Made by a program: the position numbers and the translations under genes
The notes under the pieces: generated by a model
What the model was told of the DNA's origin: nothing
The model's input: the letters and a program-made list of their open reading frames with translations, nothing else
The model's database searches: none
Source: a virus
Reading direction: 5' to 3' (one strand)
Virus record (IMG/VR): IMGVR_UViG_3300023296_000874
Span: 31,594-95,593 of that record
Length of the DNA: 64,000 nucleotides
In this document: positions 9,396-43,906 of the stretch, piece after piece
Layout of the letters: each line of letters opens with the position of its first letter
Position numbering within the stretch: the stretch's first letter is position 1

Positions 9396-9604
9396 CTTTT
9401 CACGATTTCAAGTAGAAGAAGCACGGTGGCTCCTACACCTATTACCACGAACACGGCGGCGAACAGGAACCTGCCCCGTTTCTCCTTGGCGATCTCCTCA
9501 TGGAACATCGCGTCGGTGATGTAGCCGTTGGCGGTGTTACCGAGCTCATCGAGCTGTCGCTTAACGGCCCGGTCCCAGCACCCTTGGTAGCCTCGGGCTT
9601 CCAT
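9389..9604 (-). CDS. Small membrane protein (C-terminal TM helix)
   Basis: FLFAAVFVVIGVGATVLLLLEIV. Confidence 0.5.
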   Translation of the reverse strand: MEARGYQGCWDRAVKRQLDELGNTANGYITDAMFHEEIAKEKRGRFLFAAVFVVIGVGATVLLLLEIVKSL

Positions 9605-23918: not shown

Positions 23919-24131
23919 CTAAGCCGAGCCGTACTTGTACGACTTGAACATCTGGTACTCGGTGTCCTCAATGAAGCCAAGCGCCCCGAGGGCCTTCTTG
24001 TCCTCGTCACTCACCGAGTCGTACTCCACGCCCACCTGCATCACGTCGTGTTCACAGTGAGTGGGCCACTTCGTGTCGGTGTACTTCCCAAAGATGGTGA
24101 AGGCAGCGATCAGTTCTTCGCATCCGGTCAT
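23919..24131 (-). CDS. Hypothetical small protein
   Basis: ORF track. Confidence 0.4.
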   Translation of the reverse strand: MTGCEELIAAFTIFGKYTDTKWPTHCEHDVMQVGVEYDSVSDEDKKALGALGFIEDTEYQMFKSYKYGSA

Positions 24132-24949
24132 GGCGAGATCTCCTCAGTCACTCGGTTCACCTCTGCTACGAGCAGGTCAGTGTCACAGGCGTAGAGGCCT
24201 GCGGAGCTGAAGCTGCCCACTTCGAGGATGTGGTAGTTGCCCGCCTTGGTCTGACACATGTCGAGCACCCAAACGTGGTCAGGCTCGTACTTCTGCTCCA
24301 AGCAGTAGTCCACGAACTCCTGGCCACGTCGTAGGGCGTCAGCCGTGGCAAGCTCGCGGGGGTGGTTGTACCCGCGTCGATACAGAGAGCCGGTGACAAC
24401 GCGCCCCTGGGCCACGAAGAAACGCCACTCCACCTCTACGTTGATGGGTCGAGCGACAACCACCATCGTTTCGGGCTTCACCACGTCGTCGTAGAAGCCC
24501 ATCAGCTCGATGTCCCTGTCCCACGTCTCCCTCTTCAACAACTGTCCGCTGAAGAGCTTCCGGTTGCTGTCAGGGCGCACGAACAGGCACCCGTCCTCGC
24601 CCAACGCGGCGAAGAGCATCTCCTTGTGTGCAGTCAGGAGGCCGAACGGCATGAAGATGTGGTCGCGGTTGAGCAGACGGTCCCTGATGCGCGGGTAGTA
24701 GAAGGAGCACATGAGCTGGTCGGCGTTCTCGTAGACCGTCCATCCTTGCTCCCGCGCCATTTCCACTGCCTGAAGAGAGCCGTGGAACACCATCGGGTAG
24801 ACGCCGTTCGTGGCGGCGAGCATCTCGAACCCTCCGTCCATCGGCATGAACTTGGGAGCGTAAACACTCCACCCCAATGCCTCAGCGGAGGCAGCGAGCT
24901 TGCTCTCGTACTCAGGCTCGATGCCCGTTTCGATCACCCAACCGGGCAT
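24128..24949 (-). CDS. ATP-grasp fold protein
   Basis: VVARPINVEVEWRFFV...GRVV and VWVLDMCQTKAGNYHILEVGSFSSAGLY resemble the ATP-grasp central/C-terminal motifs. Confidence 0.5.
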   Translation of the reverse strand: MPGWVIETGIEPEYESKLAASAEALGWSVYAPKFMPMDGGFEMLAATNGVYPMVFHGSLQAVEMAREQGWTVYENADQLMCSFYYPRIRDRLLNRDHIFMPFGLLTAHKEMLFAALGEDGCLFVRPDSNRKLFSGQLLKRETWDRDIELMGFYDDVVKPETMVVVARPINVEVEWRFFVAQGRVVTGSLYRRGYNHPRELATADALRRGQEFVDYCLEQKYEPDHVWVLDMCQTKAGNYHILEVGSFSSAGLYACDTDLLVAEVNRVTEEISP

Positions 24950-31421: not shown

Positions 31422-32540
31422 CTACTTGCTGAGCTGCTGCACAGCTTCCAGCAGTCCGCCACCAATGGTCACGGAGCTGAGGTTGCTGAGGCCTGCGGGG
31501 ATGCCCTGGATGGCCAGTGCGAGTGCGGCTTCACCCTTCTCCTCGAAGGCTGCGAGCTGAGCCTCAACCTCGGCCACGCGGGCTTCACCGAGCGCCTCTT
31601 CCTGAGCGACGGTCTGAGCGTCCACGGAGATCCGAATGGCGAGTGCCTGCTCGTCGGAAGCAGCCTTGTTCTCGAGGCGCTGGGCCTCGGCGTTGGCGGC
31701 GTCCTCGAGCTGACGTGCGGAGGTGAGCTCCTGAGCCCTGAGGTTGGCCTCAGTCTTCTTGCGCCCCTGCTCCAACTCGGCGTCCGTGCGGATGCTCACA
31801 ACAGCAGCGGAGCTGGCTTCCGAGGCCTCACTGTTCACGCGGTCCTGAGCGATCAGGGCCTCGCGCTGCTTGGCGAGCAGAAGCTTGTTGTTCAGTGCCG
31901 CTTCCTCGATGGCACGCTCCTTCTCAGTAGCGTTGGCACGCCGGTCGAAGGTGGCCTCGTCAGCTTCCTGCTTGAGGCGCTCGTTGGTCTTGGTCTGGAG
32001 GGCCTGAGCAACGTCCCGGTTGGGCTTGATGCTGGTCACGCTTGCGGCGAACACCTCGATGCCGATGTCCAGCGCCTGGAGGGCGGCAAGCACAACGTCG
32101 GAGATGGCCTTGGGGTCATCCACAAGCAGCGGCTCGAGCTCCTGCTGGGAGATGTAGCTCCACGCCGCCTGCTGCGCCGTGTTGGTCAGCACCGTGGCGA
32201 TGTCCGTGGAAGGGTCGCCCAGCGGAGTGCCGGTGTCGGTGTCCACAGCGAAGTTGAAGCGGGAGGCGATGTTGAGCGCCGCTTCAACTCCTACGCGCCA
32301 CTGGCCCGTCGCGCTGACGGTGACGTCCTGGAAGTCCTTGGTGCGGCAGTTGAAGGTCAGCGGGACGGTCTGGTCCACGACTGGTACCTCAGAGAGGCTC
32401 GTGCCCTTGGTCCAGAACCACAGCCAGAAGCTGAGGCCGGTGCCGCTCTTGGTGACCTTGCCACCTGCAGATGCGATCAGAAAAGTGTGAGCCTCGCCAC
32501 GCACGTTGCGTAGAGGCCCGAAGGTTGAGATGGTTGCCAT
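31422..32540 (-). CDS. SPFH/Band-7 (flotillin/HflK-like) domain protein with a long C-terminal coiled coil
   Basis: N-terminal SPFH-like region followed by Ala/Glu/Gln-rich coiled coil (EAEQLAAF..., heptad-like). Confidence 0.6.
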   Translation of the reverse strand: MATISTFGPLRNVRGEAHTFLIASAGGKVTKSGTGLSFWLWFWTKGTSLSEVPVVDQTVPLTFNCRTKDFQDVTVSATGQWRVGVEAALNIASRFNFAVDTDTGTPLGDPSTDIATVLTNTAQQAAWSYISQQELEPLLVDDPKAISDVVLAALQALDIGIEVFAASVTSIKPNRDVAQALQTKTNERLKQEADEATFDRRANATEKERAIEEAALNNKLLLAKQREALIAQDRVNSEASEASSAAVVSIRTDAELEQGRKKTEANLRAQELTSARQLEDAANAEAQRLENKAASDEQALAIRISVDAQTVAQEEALGEARVAEVEAQLAAFEEKGEAALALAIQGIPAGLSNLSSVTIGGGLLEAVQQLSK

Positions 32541-32637: not shown

Positions 32638-32856
32638 TCAAACGCCCTTGATGTCCCGTAGTCGCTTGAGCTCAAACGGGCTCGCGTGTTCGGTCCAATG
32701 GGTCCACGGGTCCACACCCAGTTCCTTGCCGACGTACTCGATGTTCTCGAGCTCCTTGCCCAGATCCGTTTCCCCGACGCCATGTGGGTCGTCGGAGAAG
32801 AGGTCGAGGTAGAGCTCGAACAGCTCGGCAACGAATTCCTGGGTGCGTGGTGTCAC
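32638..32856 (-). CDS. Hypothetical small protein
   Basis: ORF track. Confidence 0.4.
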   Translation of the reverse strand: MTPRTQEFVAELFELYLDLFSDDPHGVGETDLGKELENIEYVGKELGVDPWTHWTEHASPFELKRLRDIKGV

Positions 32857-33497
32857 TCGGCAGTCTCCCGCGCGGCGAGCATTCCCTTGCCGTTCCAGAA
32901 GGTCACGGCAGCACGCAGGGCAGCTTCAAACTGCACGGCGTCCATGTTGGTGCTCGAGCCGCCGTCGAGGCCGAAGTGGTTCGCCATGAGCGTACCCGGC
33001 GTCATCGGCTGGTCGCCTTCGGTCAGCTTGCCGAGAAGTGTCACCACCTCCCACTCGCTGCCGTTCAGCTCGTCCAGACGCTCCGTGTCCTCTTCGAGAA
33101 CCGAGCGGTTGTAGAGCACCACATCCACCCACATCGCCGCAGAAGGGATGCGCGGGCTTCCCAGCTTGTTGATGCGAGCCACCTTGGAGCTCTTGCGGGG
33201 CTTCTCACCCTCGCGCCGAGCCTTGTACTCCACCACGAAGCGGTCGTCCGGGGTGATGTCCACCACGGGGCAGGTGAAGAAGGTCTCGTCGAACAGCGCG
33301 AACACGTTCAGCGGTACGATGATCACACCGTCCCGGTAGCCCTCACGCTGAGCCGCCCATTCGAGCTGCACTGCCTCCACAAGGATGTCCCACCGCTGGG
33401 TGCCCGCGTCGTCCAAGCACAGGAACTCCGTGAAAGAGGTTCCGGTGCGGTGGTGGTTCTTGCAGAAGCCACTGACGGTGATATCTTGTTTCGGCAT
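32853..33497 (-). CDS. Hypothetical protein (start revised to MPKQDIT); possible PD-(D/E)xK-like motif VDITPDDRFVVEYK
   Basis: Promoter-motif copy 33527-33556 lies inside the ORF-track N-terminal extension. Confidence 0.45.
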   Translation of the reverse strand: MPKQDITVSGFCKNHHRTGTSFTEFLCLDDAGTQRWDILVEAVQLEWAAQREGYRDGVIIVPLNVFALFDETFFTCPVVDITPDDRFVVEYKARREGEKPRKSSKVARINKLGSPRIPSAAMWVDVVLYNRSVLEEDTERLDELNGSEWEVVTLLGKLTEGDQPMTPGTLMANHFGLDGGSSTNMDAVQFEAALRAAVTFWNGKGMLAARETAE

Positions 33498-33526
33498 TTG
33501 GGTCCGTTCCTTGGGTCGTTGTCCGT

Positions 33527-33556
33527 AGTGCTCCCCCAACGCATCACGCGGGGGAG
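33527..33556 (-). promoter_or_regulatory. Promoter-like motif CAACG-N17-CTCAGAGG
   Basis: Motif family. Confidence 0.45.
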
Positions 33557-33572: not shown

Positions 33573-34283
33573 CTACTCGTCGGCCTCGGCTGCAGCGGCA
33601 GCAGCTTCCCGCGCGGTCTTGTTGGCGCGGTCGCAGCCTTCGATCTTGTCGATGAGCCCGTACTCCAGAGCCTCCTCGGCGGTCATCCAGTTGTCGAGCT
33701 GCATGTCGGCTTCGAGCTTCTCGAAGCTCTGGCCGCAGTTCTCGGCCAGCAGCCGGGTCAGCTTCTGGTGGAGGCGGTCTGTGTGCGCCATCGCCGCCTT
33801 CATGTCCTTGTACTTGCCCTGGTTGCCCGAGCTCAGCTCGTGGATCATGATCTCGCTGTTGGGGAGCGCCGAGCGGTTGCCCGCCGAGCCCGCACTGAGC
33901 AGGAAGCTACCCATGGAAGCCGCCATACCCACGACGGTCGTGTGGACGGGGCTGTCGATGAGCTGCATGGTGTCGTAGAGCGCGAGGCCGTCGATCACCG
34001 AGCCACCGGGGCTGTTGATGTACATCATGATGGGCTTGCCGGGAGCGTCCGCCTCGAGGAAGAGGAGCTGCCCAATGGCGATGCGCATCGAAACGCTGTC
34101 CACCTGGGTGCCGACGTAGATGATGCGGTCCCGCATGAGCCGGGAGAACAGGTCGAAACTCCGCTCCATTCGGCCATCGGATTCCACCACGACGGGGATG
34201 TTGTAGTTGGCAGGCAGTCCGCCGAGGGAGGCGAGTACTTCGAGCTGTTCACGAGTGGGCATTTGGTGCTCCGTTGAGGTCAT
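33573..34283 (-). CDS. clpP: ClpP-family serine protease
   Basis: YINSPGGSV (catalytic Ser region), GMAASMGS, MIHELSSG (His region). Start revised (the ORF-track start lies upstream of the promoter motif); alternative start 34262. Confidence 0.8.
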   Translation of the reverse strand: MTSTEHQMPTREQLEVLASLGGLPANYNIPVVVESDGRMERSFDLFSRLMRDRIIYVGTQVDSVSMRIAIGQLLFLEADAPGKPIMMYINSPGGSVIDGLALYDTMQLIDSPVHTTVVGMAASMGSFLLSAGSAGNRSALPNSEIMIHELSSGNQGKYKDMKAAMAHTDRLHQKLTRLLAENCGQSFEKLEADMQLDNWMTAEEALEYGLIDKIEGCDRANKTAREAAAAAAEADE

Positions 34284-34316
34284 TTTCACAGGACGGTGAT
34301 CGGGTTTCAATAGTGC

Positions 34317-34355: not shown

Positions 34356-35081
34356 TCAGCCCGTCGCCCGAGCCTTGTCGCCCAACACGCTGTCGGCCGT
34401 CACGAAGGTTGCGCCCGCATCACCGAGGGTGCGGAGGCTGAAGTTCATGCCACCCTCGTCACCGCTCACGGGAGGCACATCGAGCGCCACACAGGCGTCG
34501 GTCACCACTTCCACGGTGTAGCCACGCTCGAGCAGTCCGGTCACGAAGCCGTCAACGCAGAAGCCGCCGAGGCAGTAGCCAAACACGCGGAAGATCACGT
34601 TGTCCTTGCCGCCCATCTCTTCCACGAGGTGTGCGATGTACGCCTCAGCGATGGGGTTGCTGAAGGCGCTGTACACCTCCTTCTCGAAGTAGAGGCCGAC
34701 GCCCGCAAGAGCCTCGGTCGTGAACTCCGTGGAGCCGTACACGCGGGGGCCGTTCCCAGCCTTGTCCTCGCCGATGCAGCCGTCGCCACCCCAGCTCATG
34801 GGGAGGAAGCGGAAGCGGGGAGGCAGCGTGCCGTCGAGCTTCAGCCAGTCCCAGGTGCCCTTGACGGCGTGGGTGGGGAAGATGCCACCGTTGTCGATGA
34901 ACTCCCAAGCGTCGTAGCTGTGGCTGTCCACGCAGCCAATGAGGGGCTCGTTGGTGGCAAGGGCGCGAGCCACAAGGCCACGAATGCGGTCGTTGACGGT
35001 GTCGTCAGCGACGGAGAGGTTGCCGTCCTTGTGTGCGAAGGCGTTGGCGGTGTCGACGTCGACGTTGATGTAGCGGGCCAT
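34356..35081 (-). CDS. Nicotinamidase/isochorismatase-family cysteine hydrolase (PncA-like)
   Basis: Alignable by eye to M. tuberculosis PncA: VDVDTANAF (cf. VDVQNDF), YFEKEVYSAFS (Lys region), GYCLGGFCV (Cys region). Confidence 0.6.
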   Translation of the reverse strand: MARYINVDVDTANAFAHKDGNLSVADDTVNDRIRGLVARALATNEPLIGCVDSHSYDAWEFIDNGGIFPTHAVKGTWDWLKLDGTLPPRFRFLPMSWGGDGCIGEDKAGNGPRVYGSTEFTTEALAGVGLYFEKEVYSAFSNPIAEAYIAHLVEEMGGKDNVIFRVFGYCLGGFCVDGFVTGLLERGYTVEVVTDACVALDVPPVSGDEGGMNFSLRTLGDAGATFVTADSVLGDKARATG

Positions 35082-35083
35082 GA

Positions 35084-35743
35084 TCAGGTCTCCTTGGAGA
35101 AGCGGTAGGTTGTTCGTCGGCCTTTGCTCTGCTCAGTCACCGGTTCGATGACGCCCAGCGCAGTAGCCTTCTTTCTCAAGTTCGAGCTGTCTTCCGCCTT
35201 GCCCGTGATGTGTCCCATCAGGTCGCGGTAGTCGCTCATGTTGAAGTTCATGTAGAGGAAGCCCGCAACCACGTCCGGGTCGTAGCGGTGCTTCTTGAGG
35301 AATTCCTGAGCGAACTCAAGGATGCCCCGATGGTCGAATGCAAGGTCCATGTTCAGCGCAGCGGCGAGTGGCGTCCACCCGTCGTGTCCCCTGAATACGT
35401 GGGAGATCGGGCAGATGTGCGCCACGCTGAGCACCTTGTCGCGGGTGTCCCGGTCGAAGCCGTCAAAGACGTGCATCTGTACCGGTTGAACCTGCGCGTG
35501 TGCCTCGGGCACGTAGCGTCGTAGGGAGCGGCGTACCGCATCAAAGAGGAGTTCGTTGGGCTTCACAAACGCGCCGGGGAGCGCCAACTGGCCCATCGCC
35601 GGAGGGTTGCGCCGCCTGATGAGCTTCACGCGGAGCTCAGGGTCTACCACTACAACGTCCACCGCCAGAGGCGGGTTCTTGTACTGCGAACGGTCGTAGT
35701 CCGCAAAGTACTCTTCGTCGGTGATGTGGGTTTCGTCGGGCAC
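35084..35743 (-). CDS. NrtR-like regulator: degenerate Nudix domain plus C-terminal winged HTH
   Basis: Degenerate Nudix box LPGAFVKPNELLFDAVRRSLRRYVPEA. C-terminal wHTH-like DYRDLMGHITG...NLRKKATALGVIEPV...GRRTTYRF. 3 nt upstream of the pncA-like gene. Confidence 0.5.
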   Translation of the reverse strand: MPDETHITDEEYFADYDRSQYKNPPLAVDVVVVDPELRVKLIRRRNPPAMGQLALPGAFVKPNELLFDAVRRSLRRYVPEAHAQVQPVQMHVFDGFDRDTRDKVLSVAHICPISHVFRGHDGWTPLAAALNMDLAFDHRGILEFAQEFLKKHRYDPDVVAGFLYMNFNMSDYRDLMGHITGKAEDSSNLRKKATALGVIEPVTEQSKGRRTTYRFSKET

Positions 35744-36212: not shown

Positions 36213-36527
36213 TCAGAGGTATTTCGGGTCCTGCCACCAGTCCTGGCTTTCCAAATCAAGCATCTCGTAGAGGCGGTCTGGAAGTTCCGACAGCCCTTCC
36301 TCCCTGAACCACTCCCCACGCCACCGAATGCGGTAGCTGCGAAGTCGCCCATGGATGTAGAACTCGGTGGGTCCCTCTTTGGGGACGAGCAGGATGACCT
36401 TCAGCGTGTAGGGGTTCCCGGTCTGAAGCTCGTTGAGGCGGCGCTCAATGTCCTTGGTGCGTCCGATCTTCACCACCCCGGTCACCGCCGCTTGGATGAT
36501 GTACAGGTCCTCCCCAAACGATTTCAC
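36213..36527 (-). CDS. T5orf172/GIY-YIG-like domain protein
   Basis: LYIIQAAVTGVVKIGRTKDIERRLNELQTGNPY matches the T5orf172 (MUG113) signature. Confidence 0.6.
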   Translation of the reverse strand: MKSFGEDLYIIQAAVTGVVKIGRTKDIERRLNELQTGNPYTLKVILLVPKEGPTEFYIHGRLRSYRIRWRGEWFREEGLSELPDRLYEMLDLESQDWWQDPKYL

Positions 36528-37480
36528 AGGAAGAACGGGCTCTCCTCTACTACCGGCTGAGCAGGCAGGAGGAAAGAGACGTAGCGGGGTGAGGGGTCGA
36601 ACGGATTGAACTTGCGCTTGTAGGTCGCGTTGAAGCCATGCTTGCCACCTTCACCGATGGCTACTCCATCAGCTACGTGGGTCACACCCTGTCGCGCCAT
36701 GTCGGCAAAGCAGTCGTGTTGAGCCCATGCACTCAGGTTCGGTATGCCTCTGTCACATGCCATGCCTGTCGTGTGGCCCCAGCACGTTTCTGTCATGGGT
36801 TGGTTGAGGTGGATCACGAGCGGCTCTCCGTCAATGCGGTAGAGCCGGTTGATGCCGTCCTCGTAGTGCCGGTCGAGAATGTACTCGTATTTCCGGTAGT
36901 TGATGTTCATGCCGCCGCGCTCCTTGGACTCCTTGACCCAACGCTTCATCACCGCGCGGGCCTCCTCCAGGTTTCCGGAGTCGATGGGCTCAGCCGTGTA
37001 GCCGGTGGTGGTCCGCTTGAAGGCGTTGATGTCAGCTCGGAGGCGACGCCACTTCTTTCCAGAGAGTGTGTCGATCCCTGCAATGTCGTAGGTGTACTCG
37101 CCGTACTCACTGAATTTCCCAGGAGTGAGCTTGACGCCCTCTGCCATGAAGGCCGCAGCGATATCAGCGGCCCAGGAGGCTGGGACGTTCTCAATCTTGA
37201 GGTTCTTGTCCGTGCTTCCCTTGTACGCCTGCCACCACGCAACCAACTCGGGAATGACTGCGTCCTTGTCACCGTAGGCTCGGTAGACACGGTAGTATTT
37301 CCCGTACTTCACACTGAAGAGGAGAAGCGTGTCCTCGCTGACGACCTTGTTGCCCTTGAACACTCCGTGGTTGATGAACCCGTAAGTGTAGGGGAGGCAG
37401 TCGGTCATTGTAGCTACACCGTCCATACGTGAACGGATGAAGGGGATGTCTGCCGTGGTCAGCGGGGTAGTTTCACTCAT
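36524..37480 (-). CDS. FemABX/MprF C-terminal (DUF2156)-like tandem-GNAT protein, paralog B (tentative aminoacyl-tRNA-dependent transferase)
   Basis: GKKWRRLRADINAFKR (cf. GKKYKxLRxxxNRFxR of DUF2156/Fem), YYRVYR, TCWGHT, RQGVTHVADG. Paralog of 38198..39166. Confidence 0.45.
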   Translation of the reverse strand: MSETTPLTTADIPFIRSRMDGVATMTDCLPYTYGFINHGVFKGNKVVSEDTLLLFSVKYGKYYRVYRAYGDKDAVIPELVAWWQAYKGSTDKNLKIENVPASWAADIAAAFMAEGVKLTPGKFSEYGEYTYDIAGIDTLSGKKWRRLRADINAFKRTTTGYTAEPIDSGNLEEARAVMKRWVKESKERGGMNINYRKYEYILDRHYEDGINRLYRIDGEPLVIHLNQPMTETCWGHTTGMACDRGIPNLSAWAQHDCFADMARQGVTHVADGVAIGEGGKHGFNATYKRKFNPFDPSPRYVSFLLPAQPVVEESPFFL

Positions 37481-38216
37481 CGAAGAGGCTCATGTATTCG
37501 TGGTCATCACCACCCAAGATGTCCGGGTGGATCAGGCGCTCGGGAACGTCGGGAGCTTCTGCGCCGCCTGAGGTCTCCCGGTGAAGGTAGAAGGGCCGGT
37601 TGTACTTGAGAACCGTCGTAGGGAGGAAGTCCCTCGGGCCTGTGTAGTAGAAACCGTCCACGCCGGTAGATGCAGCGATGGCTGCTTCCATGCGCGGGTC
37701 AAGAGTGGCAACCGGAATGCCCTGGCTCTTGAACTTGAGCGTGATGACTGCGTAGCCCTTCTCGGCCTTGGCGTTCAAGAGGTCGAACAGCATCCCAACG
37801 TCTTCGGGTCCGGTGGTGGTGAACAGCACGCCGCAAGAGAGGACGAAGTCCCACGTCGGGGCCTTGTTCAGCTCTTCCCAGTAGTTCCCGATGCGGAAGT
37901 CGTACTCCGGCACTCGGGTTCGGGCGTCCAGCACGTTGGCAGGGACGATGTCGAACCCTTGGTACTTCAGCTCGGGCCTCTGGTCGCGTAGCATCTCAGC
38001 CAGCGTGCCCGTGCCGCACCCACACTCGAGAATGGAGGTGGCGTTGGCTGGGATCAGGTCGATGAGGCCCTGCCAATGAGCAACCATGTCCTCGGGAGAG
38101 TACTTGTACCACTTGAAGCGGGTGGTGTCGTCAGGGTCCTCGTACTTCCCGGCTGACCGAGTGTAGGAGTCCCGCCAACGGAGGATCGTTTCATCTGCTA
38201 CTGGAATGGAAGACAT
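37473..38216 (-). CDS. Class I SAM-dependent methyltransferase
   Basis: Motif I ILECGCGTGTLAEML. Sits between the two paralogs. Confidence 0.75.
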   Translation of the reverse strand: MSSIPVADETILRWRDSYTRSAGKYEDPDDTTRFKWYKYSPEDMVAHWQGLIDLIPANATSILECGCGTGTLAEMLRDQRPELKYQGFDIVPANVLDARTRVPEYDFRIGNYWEELNKAPTWDFVLSCGVLFTTTGPEDVGMLFDLLNAKAEKGYAVITLKFKSQGIPVATLDPRMEAAIAASTGVDGFYYTGPRDFLPTTVLKYNRPFYLHRETSGGAEAPDVPERLIHPDILGGDDHEYMSLFDE

Positions 38217-39166
38217 TCATCATCCTCATACTTGCCGTCAATGGCCAGCCTGACACCGGACACGGCACCCTCGATAGGGCGGAATTTGTCCTTGTTCTTG
38301 AAGTTGGCGACACGCTGTCCATCTGCGATGTGCGTGACGCCGCGTTGCTGAAGAAGGCAGAACGCCTCCCAGCTTGACCACTCCCACAGGCCTCGGGGCC
38401 TGAACAGCGTGCCGTCTTCCTGCTCGGTGCCCAAAGCAATCCCAAGAGTGTGAGCCCAGCACGTGTCGGTGATCTTGTGCATGATCTGAAGGGCTACGGG
38501 CTCTCCCGCCACCTTGTAGAGCAGATGCATACAATCGTCGGTCCTGAAGTTGTCGAAGGCGTAGGTGTACTGCTTGAAGTTGAGGTTGAAGACGTTCCTC
38601 ACCTTCCTTGCCTGACGTGCCCACTCCTTGATGACGTACCATGCCTCCGTGTGCGTGACGTCCTCTACAACCTGGATCACTTCCCGTTCGGGGTTGTCCC
38701 TCTTGAACTTATTGAGGTCCCGGCGAAGCCTGACGTACTTCTTGCCCGGCATCTCGGTGATGCAGTCGATGGGAATCACGTCCTCGGGCCACACGTTGCG
38801 CTCCACGGAGCCAGCGATGGTGTCGAGGTACGGGAAGAGTGCCTGTCCGGTCTCCTCCGCGAGGTACATGAAGATCAGCTTGTCAGCCTCGTCGCGATAG
38901 CGGGCAATCCACGCCTTGAGCAGCTCAAGCTGGTCAGGCAGTGGTCCCCAAGAGCGGTAGACGCGGTAGTAGGTCTTCCCCTTGCCACGTTTGATGTGAA
39001 ACAGCAATGCCGCCGTGTCACTCTCGTAGAGATGCGCCTTGAAGGAGCTGTTCGCTCCCAGTGCGTAGGGAGGGCAGTCGTAGTAGCTCAGACTGTCCTC
39101 AGGTACGAGCGAGGCTACACGCGCCGCTGACGCTGGGGTCATGTCTGTCGTCTGAATGTCAGTCAT
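38198..39166 (-). CDS. FemABX/MprF C-terminal (DUF2156)-like tandem-GNAT protein, paralog A
   Basis: GKKYVRLRRDLNKFKR, YYRVYRSWG, TCWAHT, QQRGVTHIADG. Confidence 0.45.
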   Translation of the reverse strand: MTDIQTTDMTPASAARVASLVPEDSLSYYDCPPYALGANSSFKAHLYESDTAALLFHIKRGKGKTYYRVYRSWGPLPDQLELLKAWIARYRDEADKLIFMYLAEETGQALFPYLDTIAGSVERNVWPEDVIPIDCITEMPGKKYVRLRRDLNKFKRDNPEREVIQVVEDVTHTEAWYVIKEWARQARKVRNVFNLNFKQYTYAFDNFRTDDCMHLLYKVAGEPVALQIMHKITDTCWAHTLGIALGTEQEDGTLFRPRGLWEWSSWEAFCLLQQRGVTHIADGQRVANFKNKDKFRPIEGAVSGVRLAIDGKYEDDECLPFQ

Positions 39167-40010
39167 TCATCTTGTCCGGCTGCATGAAGGTTTGCCTCAC
39201 TCCGATTACCCAGAACAAGTCACCTGGCTCGATAAAGGGAATCGATTTCGCTTCATAGATCGGGTCAAGAGCGATACCACGCCAATACGGGTCCTTGTAG
39301 GGCTGATGGTAGTCGAGAGGAGAGCGAACGAGCGTGACCATGTCCTTCCAATGGGTGTCACGGATGTTGACCATGACGTCGCTGTCAGCTTCTTCCCACA
39401 TGGAGGAGTAGTCGTTGGTGATGGGAGCGTACTTTCCAAGCCTGTCGTTGGGGTCTGCGCCCACTACAACGCCGAGCACGGGTACGTCCCACCCAATGTC
39501 GAGCAGTCCGTGGAGAAGGCCGGACAGGCTCATAGCTGAACCCACAGGAATGACGATGCGCTTCGCTTCTCGTGGAAGGTTCGCTGCCTGCCCACGGGTC
39601 TGCTGCACGGCTTCCCAGCAATCCATTCCGAAGGGGATGTCTGCCCACCCGAGCCTCTTGGCGTCTTCCCGAGCTCGAGAGATGATGACGCTGTTGTAGC
39701 CCGCGCGGTGTTGAACCACCTCAGCTCCAGCGGCCTTGGCAGCGAGTACCTCGGGCGACAATTCACCTTCGGGAGTGTGAACCCTACACGGAATGCCGAG
39801 CTTCTGGGCGATGTGGGCGACGATGTTCACCTGCGGGCTGGATCGGCTACCCGCCGTCACCAAACCCTTCGCTCCTTGAGCGAGGTGCCAACAGGTGCGA
39901 ACTTTCCCACCCGGTACTCCTCCTACAATGAACTTGTCGTCGCGCTTGACCCACACATCCCCGTGTTTCTCAACAGGGGTGAGGGCCTTGGGGTCCGTTA
40001 CATGATCCAC
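39159..40010 (-). CDS. PLP-dependent enzyme, fold type II (ACC deaminase/D-cysteine desulfhydrase family-like)
   Basis: VKRDDKFIVGGVPGGKVR (cf. KRDDL..GGNKxRK). Confidence 0.6.
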   Translation of the reverse strand: MDHVTDPKALTPVEKHGDVWVKRDDKFIVGGVPGGKVRTCWHLAQGAKGLVTAGSRSSPQVNIVAHIAQKLGIPCRVHTPEGELSPEVLAAKAAGAEVVQHRAGYNSVIISRAREDAKRLGWADIPFGMDCWEAVQQTRGQAANLPREAKRIVIPVGSAMSLSGLLHGLLDIGWDVPVLGVVVGADPNDRLGKYAPITNDYSSMWEEADSDVMVNIRDTHWKDMVTLVRSPLDYHQPYKDPYWRGIALDPIYEAKSIPFIEPGDLFWVIGVRQTFMQPDKMND

Positions 40011-40071
40011 GTACTGTCCTCCGAGTGGTGCTCAGAGTCCAGTAACGGTCGAAAACGGTCCAAGTAGGCAA

Positions 40072-40401
40072 TCAGACCCGCTTCGTCACCTTGACTACTG
40101 CTTGGTAGAGGTCCGGCAGGCTCTCTTTGCCGCCCTTGGACTCTACGTTGTCCCAGTGAATGAGTGCCACAACCTGCGCGGTGTGGTCTCCATCAGCCAT
40201 CCGCCTGGCAAGCTGTCCACCATCTCGAGCAGCGCCCTTCCGATCCGCGTCGGGAGAGGTGTACTCGTACTTGCCGGAGTCGGTCAAGCCTCGTGGTCGT
40301 CGGTCAGCGGCCCGGAGGATGTCCTTCCAGTTCGGATGGGGGAGGTCAGCCAGCAGTTCAGCGTGCTTCAAGGTGTCAATTCGGATGACGTGGTCTTGCA
40401 T
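40072..40401 (-). CDS. Hypothetical protein
   Basis: ORF track. Confidence 0.45.
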   Translation of the reverse strand: MQDHVIRIDTLKHAELLADLPHPNWKDILRAADRRPRGLTDSGKYEYTSPDADRKGAARDGGQLARRMADGDHTAQVVALIHWDNVESKGGKESLPDLYQAVVKVTKRV

Positions 40402-41126
40402 CAGATCTCCCTCAGGGTGTCACGGATGTACGCGCCAGCTCTGAACAGTGATTCAAACGTTCCAGCGTCCGTCCACCACCCGTCACATACCCTGAAGCTG
40501 AGCTCGCCGCTTCGGAGGTAGTAGAGATGGAGGTCGGTCACTTCGAGCTCGCCCCGTTCGGAGGGCTCAAGTCGGTCAATCACGTCCCACACACGCCGGT
40601 CAAAGCAGTAGAGGCCCGTGATTGCGAGTGGGGAGATGTACTCTTTCGGCTTCTCGATGATGTGGGTCACCTTGGGGCCGCGCACCACAGCTACGCCGAA
40701 GCGGTGAGGGTCGTCCACCTCTTTGAGGAGGATGCGCCCACCACTGTCGAAGGAGCGGATGAAGTCCTCGGTCACACCAGGCTCGAACACGTTGTCGCCC
40801 AAGATGACACACACGTCATCCCCGTCAACGAAGTCCTTGGCGTAATGCAGAGCAGCGGGGATACCGCCAGCTCCATCCTGGTAGGTGTAGTGGATGTTCA
40901 CCTCGGGGCCGAAGGTCTTCTTCCCGTTGCCCAAGAGCTGAAGGAAGTCACCTGCCCAGTTGCCCCCGGTCACGATCATGATCTCTGTCACCCCTGCGCC
41001 CACGAGTGTCGCGATTGGGTAGTGAATCATGGGCTTGTCGTAGATCGGAAGCAGGTGCTTGTTGGTGACGGCGGTCAGCGGTAGTAGTCGCGAGCCGTAC
41101 CCGCCTGCCAAGATGACTCCTTTCAT
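40401..41126 (-). CDS. Sugar-phosphate nucleotidyltransferase (RmlA/GlmU-like NDP-sugar pyrophosphorylase)
   Basis: MKGVILAGGYGSRLLPLT (GGxGxRLxPLT). Confidence 0.8.
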   Translation of the reverse strand: MKGVILAGGYGSRLLPLTAVTNKHLLPIYDKPMIHYPIATLVGAGVTEIMIVTGGNWAGDFLQLLGNGKKTFGPEVNIHYTYQDGAGGIPAALHYAKDFVDGDDVCVILGDNVFEPGVTEDFIRSFDSGGRILLKEVDDPHRFGVAVVRGPKVTHIIEKPKEYISPLAITGLYCFDRRVWDVIDRLEPSERGELEVTDLHLYYLRSGELSFRVCDGWWTDAGTFESLFRAGAYIRDTLREI

Positions 41127-41152
41127 GTGTATCTCCTTCTGGAGAGCCAGAC

Positions 41153-41180
41153 CTACAAATGGATCATGATCCTTTTGTAG
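41153..41180. promoter_or_regulatory. Near-perfect 28-bp palindrome CTACAAATGGATCATGATCCTTTTGTAG (26/28) in the divergent intergenic region; candidate operator; contains two GATC sites
   Basis: Reverse-complement identity at 26/28 positions; central GGATCATGATCC is itself a perfect palindrome. Confidence 0.5.
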
Positions 41181-41216
41181 ACGCCGGATGCAAGACCAGT
41201 CGTCTCCGGAGGCATC

Positions 41217-41783
41217 ATGGACCGCATTGCATTTGCTCAGAAGATCAGCCTACTCGCCGACAAGGTGGCGCTGGGCAGCAAGGAGCCTCTCGAGCTCGTA
41301 CCGGAGGGAGGCAAGACCCCTTCGAAGAAGGAGATCTCGAAGGCGTGGCCGAACCTCACCTACAAGGGCGACACCATCCACCCTATGAAGAGTGGAAACC
41401 TCTACGAGAAGTGGCAGGACAAGGCTGAGGACAAGCTCCGAGACGATGAGGGCATCGACAGCTTCCAAGAGGTGTATCTCGGGTACGACCCCAAGAAGGA
41501 CCTCTTCGTCATGGGTTGGGACCTGTGGCCCGGTGAGGAAGAGTACGACGAGGATGACGAGTACGGAGAAGACGAGGATGGCTACGGACGCTACTCCTCA
41601 GAGGGACCTCGGAAGGCTGCCGTCAAGAAGCAGGCGAACGACATGGGCTACGCACTCGCCACCATCAAGGATGGCAGGGTGAAGAGCGTTGAGGACTACT
41701 GGCCCGGAGGTGGCTTCTACCGCCACGGGCTCAAGATTGTTCACTCCCACTACAACGGAATCCTCGACCTCAGGCTCGACTGA
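41217..41783 (+). CDS. Hypothetical acidic protein (plus-strand island)
   Basis: ORF track; first gene after the divergent region. Confidence 0.55.
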   Translation: MDRIAFAQKISLLADKVALGSKEPLELVPEGGKTPSKKEISKAWPNLTYKGDTIHPMKSGNLYEKWQDKAEDKLRDDEGIDSFQEVYLGYDPKKDLFVMGWDLWPGEEEYDEDDEYGEDEDGYGRYSSEGPRKAAVKKQANDMGYALATIKDGRVKSVEDYWPGGGFYRHGLKIVHSHYNGILDLRLD

Positions 41784-42682
41784 TGCACCCAACCCTGAAC
41801 AGACTTGCACTCCTTGAGGTCCGGCTCCGCACGGCTGAGATCAGGGAGGCGGTCCGCCATGTGGTAGCCAAGAGCTTCTACCGTAGGCGGGAGGCATCTG
41901 TTCGACACCTCACTCCGGAGGTGCTGACTGCCTTTGCAGAGGGATTCTGTGAGCAGCCACACAACGTCCGTGAGGCAGGCATTGGCGACATCGTCAAGAA
42001 GCTCTCCAAGCTGGTGAAGCTGTTCCGTCGCGCGCCCAAGCTGCTCGAGCGGATGAAAGAGTTCCTGGGAGATCTTGACCCTCGCACGATCCTGAAGTGG
42101 GCGAAGGACGGTGTACGTGCTGCCGGGCGGAAGATTCAGAAGGCCGTCAAGTCATGGCCGCTGGCCATGTTCTTCTTCCCCAAGAGCAAGCTTCCGTCAC
42201 TGAGCGACATGATCGCCAACATCGTCAACGGCACCCGGATTGGAGACCTGCTCAAGAAGGTACAGAGCAAGGCGGTGTCGGTAGATGTATGGCTTGAAAA
42301 GCACCCTATCATCAAGGGGATGTCGAAGCCGGTGCTTGCGGCAGCATTCATCTTCATCTGGATCAACGTCTCTGAGATCTCGTGGGACATGGAGAGCATC
42401 TTCCGTGGCTTCACGGGGCAGATGCCCTTCAGCGAGGTACTGACCTCACTGCCTGAGAGTGCAATCGGCCTGGTGTTTGCCAGCATGGGGATTGGATACG
42501 GCTTCATGGGACCGGTTCTCATGGCGCGCATCATTTGGCTTGTGGCCTCGAACTACGTCGAGTACGTCCCCGGACGTGGCTTCAAGGTGTTCTGGGACGT
42601 CATGGGCAAGTACACACCGGAGAGCGGTACGTTCCTCGACCGGACGCCTGACGTACAGTTCTTCAAGTGGAGCCCCTCATGA
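41783..42682 (+). CDS. Membrane-associated hypothetical protein
   Basis: C-terminal hydrophobic helices AAAFIFIWINV, IGLVFASMGIGYGFMGPVLMARIIWLV. Confidence 0.55.
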   Translation: MHPTLNRLALLEVRLRTAEIREAVRHVVAKSFYRRREASVRHLTPEVLTAFAEGFCEQPHNVREAGIGDIVKKLSKLVKLFRRAPKLLERMKEFLGDLDPRTILKWAKDGVRAAGRKIQKAVKSWPLAMFFFPKSKLPSLSDMIANIVNGTRIGDLLKKVQSKAVSVDVWLEKHPIIKGMSKPVLAAAFIFIWINVSEISWDMESIFRGFTGQMPFSEVLTSLPESAIGLVFASMGIGYGFMGPVLMARIIWLVASNYVEYVPGRGFKVFWDVMGKYTPESGTFLDRTPDVQFFKWSPS

Positions 42683-43092
42683 GCGACAAGACCGCCGCCC
42701 GCACCCTACGTGAGTTCCTCCTGGCCGGGCAGACTGGACAGGACGATACTCGTGAGCTGCTCCCCTACTCAGGTGTGAACGGACCCAAGGTTCGGACCCT
42801 CCCAGAGGCCATCGCACACTCCAAGACCACGTCAGAGGACAGTGAGGAGTGGTTCAAGGCGAACACCCCGTACCACGGGCGTGATGTGATCGAGCACTTC
42901 GACGAGCTTGTGGGGCAGTTCACCGGGGCAGAGGTACGACCTCGTCCCGGTAGGGACGTTGACCTCATCTCAGGGAAGAGCGGACTCCAAACAAAGGGCT
43001 ACAGCGAGGACCACTACACCGCTGTGCCTCAGACCTTCGAGGAGCTTTGCCTCGCGGCAATGGACCAAGAAGGCAAGACACCAAGGGAGTAG
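42679..43092 (+). CDS. Hypothetical protein (start MSDKTAART)
   Basis: ORF track; 4-nt overlap coupling. Confidence 0.5.
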   Translation: MSDKTAARTLREFLLAGQTGQDDTRELLPYSGVNGPKVRTLPEAIAHSKTTSEDSEEWFKANTPYHGRDVIEHFDELVGQFTGAEVRPRPGRDVDLISGKSGLQTKGYSEDHYTAVPQTFEELCLAAMDQEGKTPRE

Positions 43093-43093
43093 C

Positions 43094-43906
43094 GTGAAGC
43101 TTTCAACTGAAATCGCAGGACTCACCCGTCGCGCGAACGTCGAGAGTGTGACCAAGCACATCCAGACGTGGGGTGACAACGAACTTCGTCACCCGACCCG
43201 GTGGCAGAACGTCATCTACCTCTGCTATGAGCTCGCCAAGAGCACTCAGACCATCGCGGTTGGCGGACCTACATGGGACGGGCCGATGCGAGAGTGGGTC
43301 TACGTCATGCCTGATGGCATTGGTGTAGAGATGAAGGGCCTTGTGTTCAATCTTGAGCCTGAGGCCTGGTACTACGAGGTTGGGATGGCACCCTGGCCCG
43401 ACGCCCGGTCGCTTGAGTTCATCGGCCACAGAGACCACTGGACCCGTGTGTGGTACTGGGTGCTTGCGACGTTGGCTGTCCACGCCGCGAACGGAAAGCC
43501 CTATGCCGGTGTGGAGCGAGTAGTCAAAGGCCGACTCGCGGGCGTGACGTACTTGCAGGGCATGGTTGACCGCATCCTCCCCAAAGCTATTGAGGCGTAC
43601 CGCAAGGTTCGCGGCTTTGACCCCAGCCTTGGTGAGTTGAGCGTGTCCTTTTCGGAGATCGTTCCGCCCGATGGGAAGATCGCCGTCTACCAACGGTTCG
43701 ACTGCAAAGCCAAGCAGTGCGAGGGTGCCATCAGCATTCACCCGAAGGCTCTACGTGACGAGGGTGGTGAACAGTATCTCGAAACGGTACTCACCCATGA
43801 ACTTGTCCACTATCTACTCAACTCGACCAACGCGGCTGACGCCCACGGAGGAGAATTCCAAGCAGTTTCAACACTGCTCGGAATCCCCCGTGAATTCCAG
43901 GACTAA
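43094..43906 (+). CDS. SprT-like zinc metalloprotease domain protein (probable GTG start)
   Basis: C-terminal THELVHYLLN...HGGEF (HExxH plus downstream H). The ORF-track N-terminus overlaps the previous gene. Confidence 0.55.
   Translation: MKLSTEIAGLTRRANVESVTKHIQTWGDNELRHPTRWQNVIYLCYELAKSTQTIAVGGPTWDGPMREWVYVMPDGIGVEMKGLVFNLEPEAWYYEVGMAPWPDARSLEFIGHRDHWTRVWYWVLATLAVHAANGKPYAGVERVVKGRLAGVTYLQGMVDRILPKAIEAYRKVRGFDPSLGELSVSFSEIVPPDGKIAVYQRFDCKAKQCEGAISIHPKALRDEGGEQYLETVLTHELVHYLLNSTNAADAHGGEFQAVSTLLGIPREFQD

Follow-up and report, generated by a model that had tools for sequence, protein, structure and literature searches.

A conserved gene core, comprising a fold-type II PLP enzyme (PALP), one DUF2156 protein and a class I methyltransferase (MTase), plus a T5orf172 gene wherever the 3′ end is visible, lies in the 64-kb stretch of viral DNA analysed here (the window) and is found again in three other metagenomic contigs, two of which are syntenic huge-phage contigs. 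We put the probability at about 0.4 that this core is an accessory module in a lineage of huge phages and serves for post-replicative DNA hypermodification. The observations are of protein folds, family memberships, conserved gene linkage and a PLP enzyme homologous to decarboxylases that act on DNA; we infer DNA as the target and the order of the steps. If this reading is right, such phages would possess a rare way of using charged tRNA to make peptide-like decorations, with viral DNA as the likeliest carrier.

Gene layout and conservation

The locus at 36,213–41,126 contains seven minus-strand genes that are co-directional and mostly overlapping, as an earlier note on this DNA had described; all coordinates and strands were confirmed (Table 1). 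Gene junctions overlap by 1, 8, 19, 8 and 4 nt, and the sole gap, of 61 nt, separates the 109-aa ORF from the PLP gene. GC3 exceeds GC2 across the ORFs (0.68–0.79 versus 0.37–0.44), which argues that they are coding, and GGAG/GAGG Shine–Dalgarno-like motifs lie upstream of most starts. The RmlA-like gene is the first of this leftward transcription unit; its stop is overlapped by one base (TGATG) by the start of the 109-aa ORF, which is coding-like (GC3 0.70) and matches nothing in Pfam, PHROGs, NCBIfam or PADLOC. The 4-nt overlap joins the T5orf172 gene to the stop of paralogue B.

Table 1 The seven operon genes, listed in the direction of transcription
Gene	Coordinates	Strand	Length (aa)	Domain match
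RmlA-like sugar-1-phosphate nucleotidyltransferase	41126-40401	minus	241	PF00483, 2.3e-43
109-aa ORF	40401-40072	minus	109	no domain match
Fold-type II PLP enzyme (PALP)	40010-39159	minus	283	PF00291, 1.3e-13
DUF2156 paralogue A	39166-38198	minus	322	PF09924, 1.7e-9, 37.6 bits
Class I SAM-dependent MTase	38216-37473	minus	247	Methyltransf_25, 3.5e-8; Methyltransf_12, 5.6e-8
DUF2156 paralogue B	37480-36524	minus	318	PF09924, 2.8e-10, 40.2 bits
T5orf172/MUG113 protein (GIY-YIG superfamily)	36527-36213	minus	104	PF13455, 1.8e-10; PF10544, 3.4e-10

The seven genes had been taken together as one pathway, but they are not conserved as a unit: the RmlA-like gene, the 109-aa ORF and paralogue A are missing from all three related loci, with no tblastn match to the 109-aa ORF at these loci and no RmlA homologue in L006 or L018. 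PALP, DUF2156 and MTase are neighbours in four independent loci with three gene orders: PALP–A–MT–B in the window, PALP–57aa–DUF2156–MT in L005, DUF2156–PALP–MT–T5orf172 in L006/L007 and PALP–DUF2156–MT–T5orf172 in L018. The PLP enzyme is the syntenic anchor, with orthologues at 56–72% identity in L005, L006, L013, L015 and L018. MTase orthologues (43–51%) lie 3′ of the DUF2156/PALP genes in L005, L006 and L018, T5orf172 orthologues (51–59%) immediately 3′ of the MTase in L006 and L018, and the DUF2156 proteins of the four loci share 29–55% identity. A stepwise elaboration, a point in favour of the DNA-hypermodification reading, fits these loci, running from PALP without DUF2156, MTase or an adjacent T5orf172 gene in the same-lineage relatives L013 and L015, through the addition of DUF2156 and MTase in L005, L006 and L018, to a second DUF2156 in this phage only.

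The module sits in a replication and nucleotide-metabolism region (TopoI, HU, PolA, SNF2, DnaB), a location that, together with the solubility of the encoded proteins, favours DNA hypermodification; against it counts that a NAD-salvage cluster, not known modification genes, comes after the module. A hot spot of variable content lies between TopoI/SprT and the NAD genes. That variability, and the occurrence of PALP without DUF2156 or MTase in L013, L015 and 80 of 80 IMG/VR loci, would also suit two unrelated functions, in which the PLP enzyme keeps an ancestral job and DUF2156 and MTase (with or without T5orf172) form a separately inserted cassette with another target. We regard this as distinctly unlikely. 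PALP and MTase are adjacent to, or within about 200 nt of, the phage-type DUF2156 gene in all four known loci, L006 has PALP between DUF2156 and MTase, the linkage persists down to 29–37% DUF2156 identity, and start and stop codons overlap at all PALP/A/MT/B/T5orf172 junctions. Conservation of the linkage despite such divergence supports a joint role in DNA hypermodification.

A PLP enzyme related to DNA-acting decarboxylases

The PLP enzyme scores 51.4 bits against PF00291 (cut-off 35) and has 849 homologues at E < 1e-5; cellular ACC deaminase and D-Cys desulfhydrase, at 35–38 bits, stand further away. Its best PHROG is phrog_3650 (2.2e-34), of which Salmonella phage ViI gp226 is a member (2.5e-241), and it also matches phrog_7093 (9.5e-8), which includes M6 gp52 (2.2e-159). 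Both proteins have been shown to act on DNA, where they decarboxylate O-serinyl- or C-alpha-glycinyl-thymidine (PMC8989533). Aligned with hhalign, the family profile matched gp226 (97.8%, E = 1.1e-12), pairing gp226 K92 with K36, and matched gp52, which shares both the length and K36, over 225 columns (E = 1.1e-4). With gp226 as direct query, phmmer matched orthologues of the PLP enzyme with E down to 5e-6. K36, the predicted PLP lysine (KRDD...GGK36VR), is unchanged across 20 homologues.

On these sequence comparisons the PLP enzyme is a homologue of phage decarboxylases acting on amino acid–nucleobase conjugates in DNA, and this relationship to proven DNA-acting enzymes argues for DNA hypermodification; counted against it, the likeness to gp226 amounts to 26% identity over the N-terminal 156 columns only, and the reaction could be an elimination or replacement instead of a decarboxylation. 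A further argument comes from PALP-like domains 47–63% identical to the enzyme, which in 70 of 80 IMG/VR loci lie inside, or at most 6 kb from, a ParB plus N6_N4 DNA-methylase-like protein; phages Pam4 and Vincenzo carry a PALP homologue in the same company. Among the acceptors the earlier note had listed (a lipid, a peptidoglycan precursor, a nucleotide or a DNA base), the DNA base thus gains real support from homology to gp226 and gp52. The operon proteins have no membrane segments and are all soluble (paralogue B, with a maximum KD19 of 0.85, has no hydrophobic segment).

Scattered genes of the same phage had been proposed as parts of a hypermodification kit, but other roles suit them better: the supposed kit kinase, a P-loop protein, belongs to the Pnkp-type polynucleotide kinase-phosphatases and adjoins an RlaP RNA-repair protein, and the ATP-grasp protein is an R2K enzyme, a group for which protein modification is predicted in the jumbo-phage literature. 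In the window and about 100 kb of related loci, no homologue of aGPT-Pplase/AADT, 5-hmdU kinase, dUMP hydroxymethylase or ParB–MTase was found, nor any enzyme that could attach a first amino acid to DNA; the lack of the last counts against the DNA reading.

DUF2156 paralogues and possible acceptors

Both paralogues exceed the PF09924 gathering cut-off (27.5 bits), bearing out their description as MprF-C/DUF2156-like, and their 29% identity over 314 residues (E = 3e-34) is far beyond chance. The motifs quoted for them are present (GKKYVRLRRDLNKFKR / GKKWRRLRADINAFKR; YYRVYR in both; TCWAHT / TCWGHT), except that the first residue of RGVTH[IV]ADG is not conserved, because A has RGVTHIADG and B has QGVTHVADG. 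The predicted tandem GNAT architecture was recovered in an AF2 model of paralogue A (pLDDT 87.2, pTM 0.85), for which the best Foldseek match is the standalone DUF2156 protein 2HQY (TM 0.75/0.81); it also matches the MprF synthase domains 4V36, 5VRV, 4V35 and 7DUW, FemX (1NE9; TM 0.66) and the aminoacyl-tRNA-dependent peptide synthases Sba18 (9WQY)/Sbb17. Paralogue A has a basic helix at 142–157 and a lysine, K292, invariant in 20 sequences. The paralogues' basic ‘GKKxxxLRxxxNxF’ helix and C-terminal ‘K.K(F/Y).P’ lysine motif align with motifs of Bacillus licheniformis Lys-PGS, and resemble the tRNA-binding helix and catalytic lysine of FemX and DhpH-C.

By this homology, both paralogues are predicted to be aminoacyl-tRNA-dependent transferases, a resemblance that favours the DNA-hypermodification reading; set against it are the lack of a recognisable DNA-binding domain in either paralogue and the fact that, to our knowledge, all characterised PF09924 enzymes acylate a lipid or sterol hydroxyl and none acylates DNA. 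Paralogue B is the orthologue of the one DUF2156 gene that L005, L006 and L018 each carry (33–37% identity; E 1e-51 to 1e-63 by tblastn). Paralogue A (about 30%), with a 12-residue insertion at about residues 246–257 relative to the other copies, is a divergent duplicate confined to this phage. The subfamily is rare: a search of 1.84 billion proteins gave about six close matches, and the paralogues of the window account for two of these.

The MprF and FemX matches also invite a role in envelope remodelling, with host phosphatidylglycerol, diacylglycerol or a peptidoglycan precursor aminoacylated from Lys-tRNA made by the phage LysRS and lipids reshaped by the PlsC-type acyltransferase. The paralogues' family, PF09924, is that of the MprF synthase domain, LysX sets a precedent for dedicated aaRS partners, and the two genes that the earlier note had connected with the operon are real: the LysRS is complete (614 bits for NF001756, cut-off 468) and the acyltransferase belongs to PF01553 (3e-14). 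They are not kept with the module in related phages, however; they lie 8 kb and 19 kb from it, neither is syntenic with it in L006, and no LysRS occurs across the syntenic stretch of L006. The operon encodes neither a flippase nor any protein with a membrane segment, envelope remodelling would leave the PLP enzyme and MTase unexplained, and the homology of the PLP enzyme points to DNA; we consider this reading very unlikely.

Highly improbable, too, is a protein target, with residues added at N-termini or on side chains in the manner of L/F- and R-transferases, for example to feed the phage ClpP protease, or an action on tRNA itself. The Fem-like GNAT architecture is common to aminoacyl-tRNA–protein transferases, and genes for ClpP and an AAA ATPase lie near the module; yet ClpP does not adjoin it in L006, a Pfam scan gave no similarity to the L/F-transferase or ATE1 families, and the PLP enzyme and MTase would again lack a role.

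A proposed pathway and its parallels

The MTase (motif I, ILECGCGTGT) lacks a (D/N/S)PPY motif and is of small-molecule type, which counts against the DNA reading. A word-seeded search of 5.8 billion protein clusters found only three relatives, and its poor AF2 model (pLDDT 57.6) matched generic class I MTases in Foldseek. The RmlA-like protein falls below the equivalog cut-offs of TIGR01208 and TIGR01207 (208 and 198 bits versus 320 and 361); its best phage match (52% identity) comes from an uncultured phage of 595 kb, LR756511, where the gene context is unrelated.

MTase type, the leading RmlA-like gene and the solubility of all operon proteins would suit a small-molecule pathway, in which an unusual amino acid, amino sugar or nucleotide receives one or two tRNA-donated residues and is methylated to give a soluble toxin, signal or anti-defence molecule. 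The enzyme set parallels that of dehydrophos, with its PLP domain (DhpH-N), two tRNA-dependent GNAT transferases (DhpH-C, DhpK) and O-methyltransferase, DhpI; glycylthricin/BD-12 and the action of Orf11/Sba18 on streptothrisamine offer similar likenesses. We nevertheless think this unlikely, as the nearest characterised relatives of the PLP enzyme work on the DNA polymer, not on free metabolites, close PALP homologues are fused to or beside a DNA-methylase-like protein in most viral loci, RmlA is missing from the other three module instances, and the window encodes no 4,6-dehydratase, sugar aminotransferase, glycosyltransferase or exporter.

Under the DNA-hypermodification reading, a base in replicated phage DNA would first gain an amino-acid-like group, and the PLP enzyme would decarboxylate the tethered amino acid to leave a primary amine on a short linker. 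DUF2156-B would then acylate that amine with an amino acid from aminoacyl-tRNA; paralogue A, here only, might add a second residue or serve a second acceptor. The MTase would methylate the new amino or carboxyl group, yielding an aminoacyl- or dipeptidyl-aminoalkyl base that would block host nucleases, and the GIY-YIG-type T5orf172 protein could cut unmodified DNA. We infer these roles for the MTase and T5orf172 protein, as we would any for the RmlA-like protein and 109-aa ORF.

Precedents favour such chemistry. Gly-tRNA supplies the glycine that the GNAT Mom attaches to adenine in dsDNA (PMC13219725), and the PaMx11 acetyltransferase acylates the amine of 5-NmdU (PMC8989533). The acylation proposed for DUF2156-B is carried out on other amines by Fem/PacB/Orf11-type enzymes, and on DNA by PaMx11 gp48 with acetyl-CoA as the donor.

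Organization of the operon and its genomic setting

Seven minus-strand ORFs with codon-position GC of the coding type occupy the region 36213-41126, preceded by a divergent intergenic region (41127-41216); their extent, shared direction and overlaps agree with the earlier note. The junctions from the PLP enzyme gene to the last gene all overlap (by 8, 19, 8 and 4 nt), the region has a single gap, of 61 nt, and a terminator scan found no terminator-like site interrupting its minus strand; promoter and terminator scans were at or below chance. The first gene product, which is RmlA-like, scored below the NCBIfam equivalog cut-offs (TIGR01208, 208 bits against 320; TIGR01207, 198 bits against 361) and is missing ~50 residues found at the C-terminus of RmlA. 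It is classed here at the level of PF00483, as a sugar-1-phosphate nucleotidyltransferase, and a homologue in the 595-kb phage LR756511 has a context unrelated to the module. The AlphaFold2 model of the methyltransferase was poor (pLDDT 57.6, from three sequences only), with generic fold matches to Bud23, DesVI/TylM1 and CysG. PADLOC matches were weak and generic (the methyltransferase to mad2 at 1.9e-7, T5orf172 to PDC-S57).

Features of the operon and of the surrounding window
Feature	Coordinates	Strand	Size, match or remark
Gene 1, nucleotidyltransferase	41126-40401	-	241 aa; PF00483, 2.3e-43
Gene 2, ORF	40401-40072	-	109 aa; no Pfam match
Gene 3, PLP enzyme	40010-39159	-	283 aa; PF00291, 51 bits
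Gene 4, paralogue A	39166-38198	-	322 aa; PF09924, 37.6 bits
Gene 5, class I methyltransferase	38216-37473	-	247 aa
Gene 6, paralogue B	37480-36524	-	318 aa; PF09924, 40.2 bits
Gene 7, T5orf172/MUG113	36527-36213	-	104 aa
Ribosomal protein L7/L12 C-terminal domain	218-655		145-aa ORF; short match, PF00542, 27.7 bits (cut-off 25.9)
DUF1848 protein	8463-9344		PF08902, 4.8e-32
Nudix protein	9604-10182		NAD-related set
Isochorismatase/nicotinamidase-like	14498-15229		NAD-related set
Pnkp-type polynucleotide kinase-phosphatase	17759-18730		AAA_33 + PNK3P/HAD
PRPP synthetase	19394-20380		NAD-related set
RlaP nucleotidyltransferase	20394-21581		‘RNA repair pathway’
Small P-loop protein	22330-22773		
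R2K-clade ATP-grasp protein	24128-24949		PF18299/PF14243
Lysyl-tRNA synthetase (LysRS), class II	27224-28717		complete; NF001756, 614 bits (cut-off 468)
NAPRTase-like, weak	28844-30415		NAD-related set; 523 aa
Band_7/SPFH protein	31422-32540		
DUF3228 protein	32853-33539		
ClpP	33573-34310		
Isochorismatase/nicotinamidase-like	34356-35081		NAD-related set
NrtR-like Nudix/wHTH	35084-35743		NAD-related set
SprT-like, zinc-metallopeptidase motif	42908-43906	+	PF10263 at cut-off
AAA ATPase	49738-51324		528 aa

The window encodes DNA polymerase A, SNF2 and DnaB-type helicases, topoisomerase I, HU, ClpP, LysRS, an NAD-salvage set, Pnkp and RlaP, and no tRNA genes were found in its 64 kb. A 114.6-kb ENA contig and JGI contigs encode identical proteins, a 257.5-kb contig also carries the methyltransferase, and the syntenic relatives include a 478-kb scaffold; megablast of the region against a 50,697-record phage collection returned no DNA-level relative. 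The window belongs to a huge phage for which metagenomes are the sole source. The best-conserved anchor of synteny among the relatives is the AAA–HU–TopoI block (49738-46085). The SprT-like gene is kept upstream of the module in divergent orientation in two of them (L006 and L018), and the plus-strand genes between it and the RmlA-like gene (41217-42682) are confined to the window phage. The right flank contains PhoH/PIN and proteins without known function, and nothing else. An NAD-related set, syntenic in relatives and joined by an NAD synthase in L006, lies directly 3′ of the module and probably counters NAD-depleting defences.

Several distant genes had been cited in the earlier note as fitting an aminoacylation or DNA-hypermodification role. 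The LysRS gene is genuine, but it lies 8 kb off, and the syntenic part of L006 lacks it; the PlsC gene lies 19 kb off and is likewise not syntenic with the module in L006, so neither stands as a dedicated partner. Stray synthetases are frequent in huge phages, according to the jumbo-phage literature. The supposed hypermodification kinase is a Pnkp beside RlaP, a pair that looks like an RNA/tRNA repair kit, and the ATP-grasp protein is an R2K enzyme, a family predicted in the same literature to comprise peptide ligases that modify host proteins. The ‘Fe-S’ ORF, a DUF1848 protein, carries a C-terminal CX3CX2C motif (CPHACTYC), as in radical-SAM clusters, and has no similarity to the radical-SAM (rSAM) isomerase gp53 of phage M6.

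Two DUF2156 paralogues within a rare conserved unit

The paralogues A and B share 29% identity (E = 3e-34) and the motifs first read from the sequence. Both match PF09924 above its curated Pfam gathering cut-off of 27.5 bits, as had been anticipated, and the family is also listed in the precomputed Pfam annotation of an identical protein. An AlphaFold2 model, made for paralogue A only from a 20-sequence alignment, comprises the expected two GNAT domains (pLDDT 87.2, pTM 0.85); paralogue B probably has the same fold, given its identity to A. Foldseek comparison of the model with the PDB placed 2HQY, a standalone Bacteroides DUF2156 protein, first (TM 0.75/0.81), followed by MprF synthase domains from five species and then by FemX (TM 0.63-0.66) and the aminoacyl-tRNA-dependent peptide synthases Sba18/Sbb17. 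The suggested FemAB membership did not survive a Pfam scan, which gave no PF02388 or PF13480 match at E ≤ 0.1; the likeness to FemX is structural only.

According to reviews, aminoacyl-tRNA transferases bind the acceptor stem through a basic helix of their second GNAT domain and depend on one essential lysine. Both features have counterparts in the paralogues. A positively charged helix predicted in GNAT domain 2 at 142-157, GKKYVRLRRDLNKFKR, matches SGKKRAGLRAIYNRFER in the alignment with 4V36 (B. licheniformis Lys-PGS), and the C-terminal K292 column (‘...K.K(F/Y).P’), invariant in 20 sequences, aligns with GLRSFKEKYKP. Judged by position, K292 is the putative counterpart of FemX K305 and DhpH-C K329. 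Given the PF09924 match, the tandem GNAT fold, the basic helix and the invariant lysine, we infer from homology, on good grounds, that the paralogues use aminoacyl-tRNA as their acyl donor. A 12-residue insertion, GTEQEDGTLFRP (residues ~246-257), also sets paralogue A apart. It follows the TCWAHT strand, ahead of the next helix, is present neither in B nor in any single-copy orthologue, and could reflect an altered pocket for acceptor or donor.

DUF2156/MprF-C members known so far aminoacylate membrane lipids and sterols, and the characterised PF09924 enzymes form, to our knowledge, esters on lipids or sterols. We rejected MprF proper because both proteins (318-322 aa) consist of the tandem GNAT only, with no N-terminal flippase and no membrane segment (maximum 19-residue Kyte–Doolittle mean, 0.72-0.85), and we regard an envelope target as very unlikely.

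These proteins are rare. A profile of A and B, run with HMMER against 1.84 billion representative proteins, gave 30 matches at E ≤ 1e-3, of which the only close ones besides the queries were P0003 (E = 1e-54), P0004 (1e-51) and two fragments. The next group (P0007-P0010, E ~1e-9) consists of standalone proteins in archaeal-looking contexts with TFIIS, TrmB and AsnC neighbours, and was dropped as a clue to function because it has no conserved partner gene. For A, no match came from tblastn against 50,697 phage records, and a word-seeded search of 5.8 billion clusters returned the query itself only. The DUF2156 profile had no relatives in IMG/VR or in 185,579 GTDB genomes, and it added one locus, L018, from JGI metagenomes.

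In every phage-type DUF2156 locus, a PLP enzyme (PALP) and a methyltransferase (MT) lie within ~200 nt. The gene order is PALP–A–MT–B–T5orf172 in the window, PALP–57aa–DUF2156–MT in L005 (where the contig then ends), DUF2156–PALP–MT–T5orf172 on the 478-kb scaffold (L006/L007) and PALP–DUF2156–MT–T5orf172 in L018. Because three gene orders occur among DUF2156 proteins of 29-55% identity, these loci argue for functional coupling of PALP, DUF2156 and MT, not for recent shared descent of one block. That two unrelated functions simply lie side by side is hence improbable. The single-copy DUF2156 proteins are closer to B (33-37%) than to A (~30%), and the RmlA-like gene, the 109-aa ORF and A have no counterpart in L005, L006/L007 or L018; these three are additions in the window phage. 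In further loci of the same lineage (L013/L014, L015) the PLP gene stands alone at the same place, adjoining topoisomerase I or NAD genes. The apparent history is that PALP came first, then DUF2156, MT and T5orf172, and finally the second DUF2156 and the RmlA-like gene.

DNA-acting relatives of the PLP enzyme

Cellular families match the fold-type II PLP enzyme weakly (TIGR01275, 35 bits; D-cysteine desulfhydrase and 1J0A, 29-38 bits by profile). Its best family is PHROG 3650 (2.2e-34), followed by PHROG 7093 (9.5e-8), and ViI gp226 (2.5e-241) and M6 gp52 (2.2e-159) form the cores of these two families, respectively. Purified ViI gp226 converts O-serinyl-thymidine to 5-NeOmdU, and purified M6 gp52 converts Cα-glycinyl-thymidine to 5-NedU, both in DNA (Lee et al., PMC8989533); the same study modelled gp226 on 1J0A and named K92 (gp226) and K36 (gp52) as the PLP lysines. 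In hhalign, a 20-sequence profile of the PLP family aligned with gp226 at 97.8% probability (E = 1.1e-12); this alignment, confined to the N-terminal 156 columns, pairs K92 with the invariant K36. With M6 gp52, a protein of the same length, the alignment covered 225 of 278 residues (E = 1.1e-4), sharing K36 and a C-terminal ‘P.Y..K’ motif. Moreover, phmmer with gp226 matched the orthologues in L006, L015 and L018 (E = 5e-6 to 2e-4). On the strength of PHROG membership, hhalign and phmmer, the enzyme is assigned by homology, with its predicted PLP lysine conserved, to a phage clade whose two characterised members act on base-tethered amino acids in DNA, and it may likewise be a decarboxylase. 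A protein or RNA target is judged very unlikely, much as the envelope is. Searches by phmmer and blastp for the 5-hmdU kinase and aGPT-Pplase partners of the characterised enzymes, with M6 gp51, gp54 and gp58 and ViI gp243 and gp247, yielded no match across the window, L001, L005, L006, L013-L015, L018 and L103.

The PLP family is far larger than the DUF2156 unit, with 849 proteins at E ≤ 1e-5, mostly at 55-60% identity. Extensions on some members proved to be halves of a ParB and N6_N4 DNA-methylase-like protein. Among 80 IMG/VR loci retrieved with the PLP profile, the PLP domain is embedded in such a protein in 53, where it separates the half with motifs X/I-III from the half with ‘W..GDS..CPPY’ (motif IV being ‘CPPY’). 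A separate copy lies within 6 kb in 17, nearly always on the same strand, and 10 have none. No other conserved neighbour was found in the 80 loci, and DUF2156, class I MTase, T5orf172 and RmlA occur in none of them. Isolated phages follow suit: Pam4 gp70 (4786-7275 of its locus) reads ParB, methylase N-half, PALP, methylase C-half, and in Mycobacterium phage Vincenzo (1-2275) the ParB-methylase gp1 is followed by the PALP gp2. Given this fusion or adjacency, and that gp226 of the same PHROG acts on DNA-tethered amino acids, PALP and ParB-methylase could form a widespread, as yet undescribed two-enzyme DNA-modification system, in which SAM would be the source of an aminopropyl- or aminocarboxypropyl-type base. 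A search for a ParB-methylase in the window and its relatives came back empty. Literature searches found no papers on ParB-methylase–PLP fusions, on DUF2156 in phages or on ACC-deaminase-like phage enzymes.

A candidate DNA-hypermodification pathway and known systems

Taken together, the paralogue features, the conserved unit, the PLP homology, the ParB link and the precedents of phage Mu Mom and phage PaMx11 suggest a model in which the module hypermodifies DNA. The PLP enzyme would expose a primary amine on an amino acid tethered to a base, DUF2156-B would aminoacylate that amine from aminoacyl-tRNA, DUF2156-A would add a second residue or act at a second site, and the methyltransferase would methylate the product. 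The GIY-YIG-type T5orf172 may tell modified from unmodified DNA, a role with T4 endonuclease II as its analogue. We infer all these steps, with homology behind those of PALP and DUF2156-B. PALP is favoured as acting before DUF2156 because it stands alone in relatives and because a carboxyl-linked aminoacyl group has no α-carboxylate left for a decarboxylase.

We put the probability of the DNA model at about 0.4, because no enzyme for attaching the first amino-acid-like group was found in the 64 kb plus ~20 kb covered, out of at least 257 kb in the whole genome, characterised PF09924 enzymes are not known to act beyond lipids and sterols, the methyltransferase looks like those that act on small molecules, the gp226 alignment is N-terminal and the module borders NAD genes. 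Its most specific form is doubtful: that a virion DNA base bears an aminoalkyl arm with one tRNA-derived residue (two in the window phage), then methylated, built by MprF-C-type tandem GNATs. If true, this would give DNA a peptide side chain built from tRNA without the ribosome, and the DUF2156 family its first nucleic-acid substrate; a soluble phage subfamily tied to a PLP enzyme of the DNA-hypermodification type would give the family a new acceptor class. Such modifications set restriction-enzyme and CRISPR sensitivity, influence sequencing and yield enzymes for DNA functionalisation. If the target is not DNA, the module is still an uncharacterised tRNA-dependent pathway of huge phages. The kinds of gene are already known; their combination is without description in the literature searched and extremely rare in sequence space, and we group the module with the phage clusters for amino-acid-based hypermodification, here with predicted GNAT chemistry that depends on tRNA.

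The paralogues resemble MprF-C and standalone DUF2156 proteins (4V36, 4V35, 5VRV, 2HQY) in Pfam family, tandem GNAT fold (TM 0.6-0.8), the basic helix GKKxxxLRxxxNxF that opens the second GNAT domain and the C-terminal K.K(F/Y).P. They differ in being soluble, phage-encoded, without a flippase domain, only ~15% identical and set beside a PLP enzyme and a methyltransferase, and the ordinary C-terminal ‘INREEDxGxxGLR’ block is replaced by ‘THxADG...’. With Fem-type enzymes (FemX; DhpH-C/DhpK; Orf11/Sba18/Sbb17; PacB) they share the double GNAT, the tRNA-binding helix and a single catalytic lysine, and for them too an acceptor amine is plausible; unlike FemABX, their sequence family is DUF2156. 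As in dehydrophos biosynthesis, two paralogous transferases accompany a PLP enzyme and a methyltransferase, so that a soluble peptidyl metabolite might be the product; we consider this unlikely. The context here is viral rather than actinomycete or cell-wall, and the PLP partner is of fold-type II and DNA-associated.

The thymidine clusters of ViI, M6 and PaMx11 comprise 5-HMUDK, aGPT-Pplase/AADT, PLP decarboxylase, rSAM isomerase and acetyltransferase (PMC8989533). The DNA model shares their PLP homologue and their logic, in which a base-appended amino acid is then sculpted, including GNAT acylation of the resulting amine, as when PaMx11 gp48 acetylates the 5-NmdU amine (PMC8989533). Unlike them, the window and related loci have no 5-HMUDK, AADT, dUMP hydroxymethylase or rSAM isomerase homologue, and the acyl donor would be aminoacyl-tRNA, not acetyl-CoA as in PaMx11. 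The sole precedent for the proposed chemistry is Mom, a GNAT-superfamily phage enzyme that uses Gly-tRNA to transfer glycyl to N6 of adenine in dsDNA (PMC13219725); established in 2026, it is the only known case of tRNA-dependent DNA modification, and we compare it by description. Mom acts alone and has one GNAT domain, into which an HTH-like segment is inserted, whereas here tandem-GNAT DUF2156 proteins come with PLP and methyltransferase partners. If the DNA model is true, theirs would be a second such modification, reached in several steps on an unrelated scaffold, and would show that phages repeatedly tap charged tRNA for DNA decoration.
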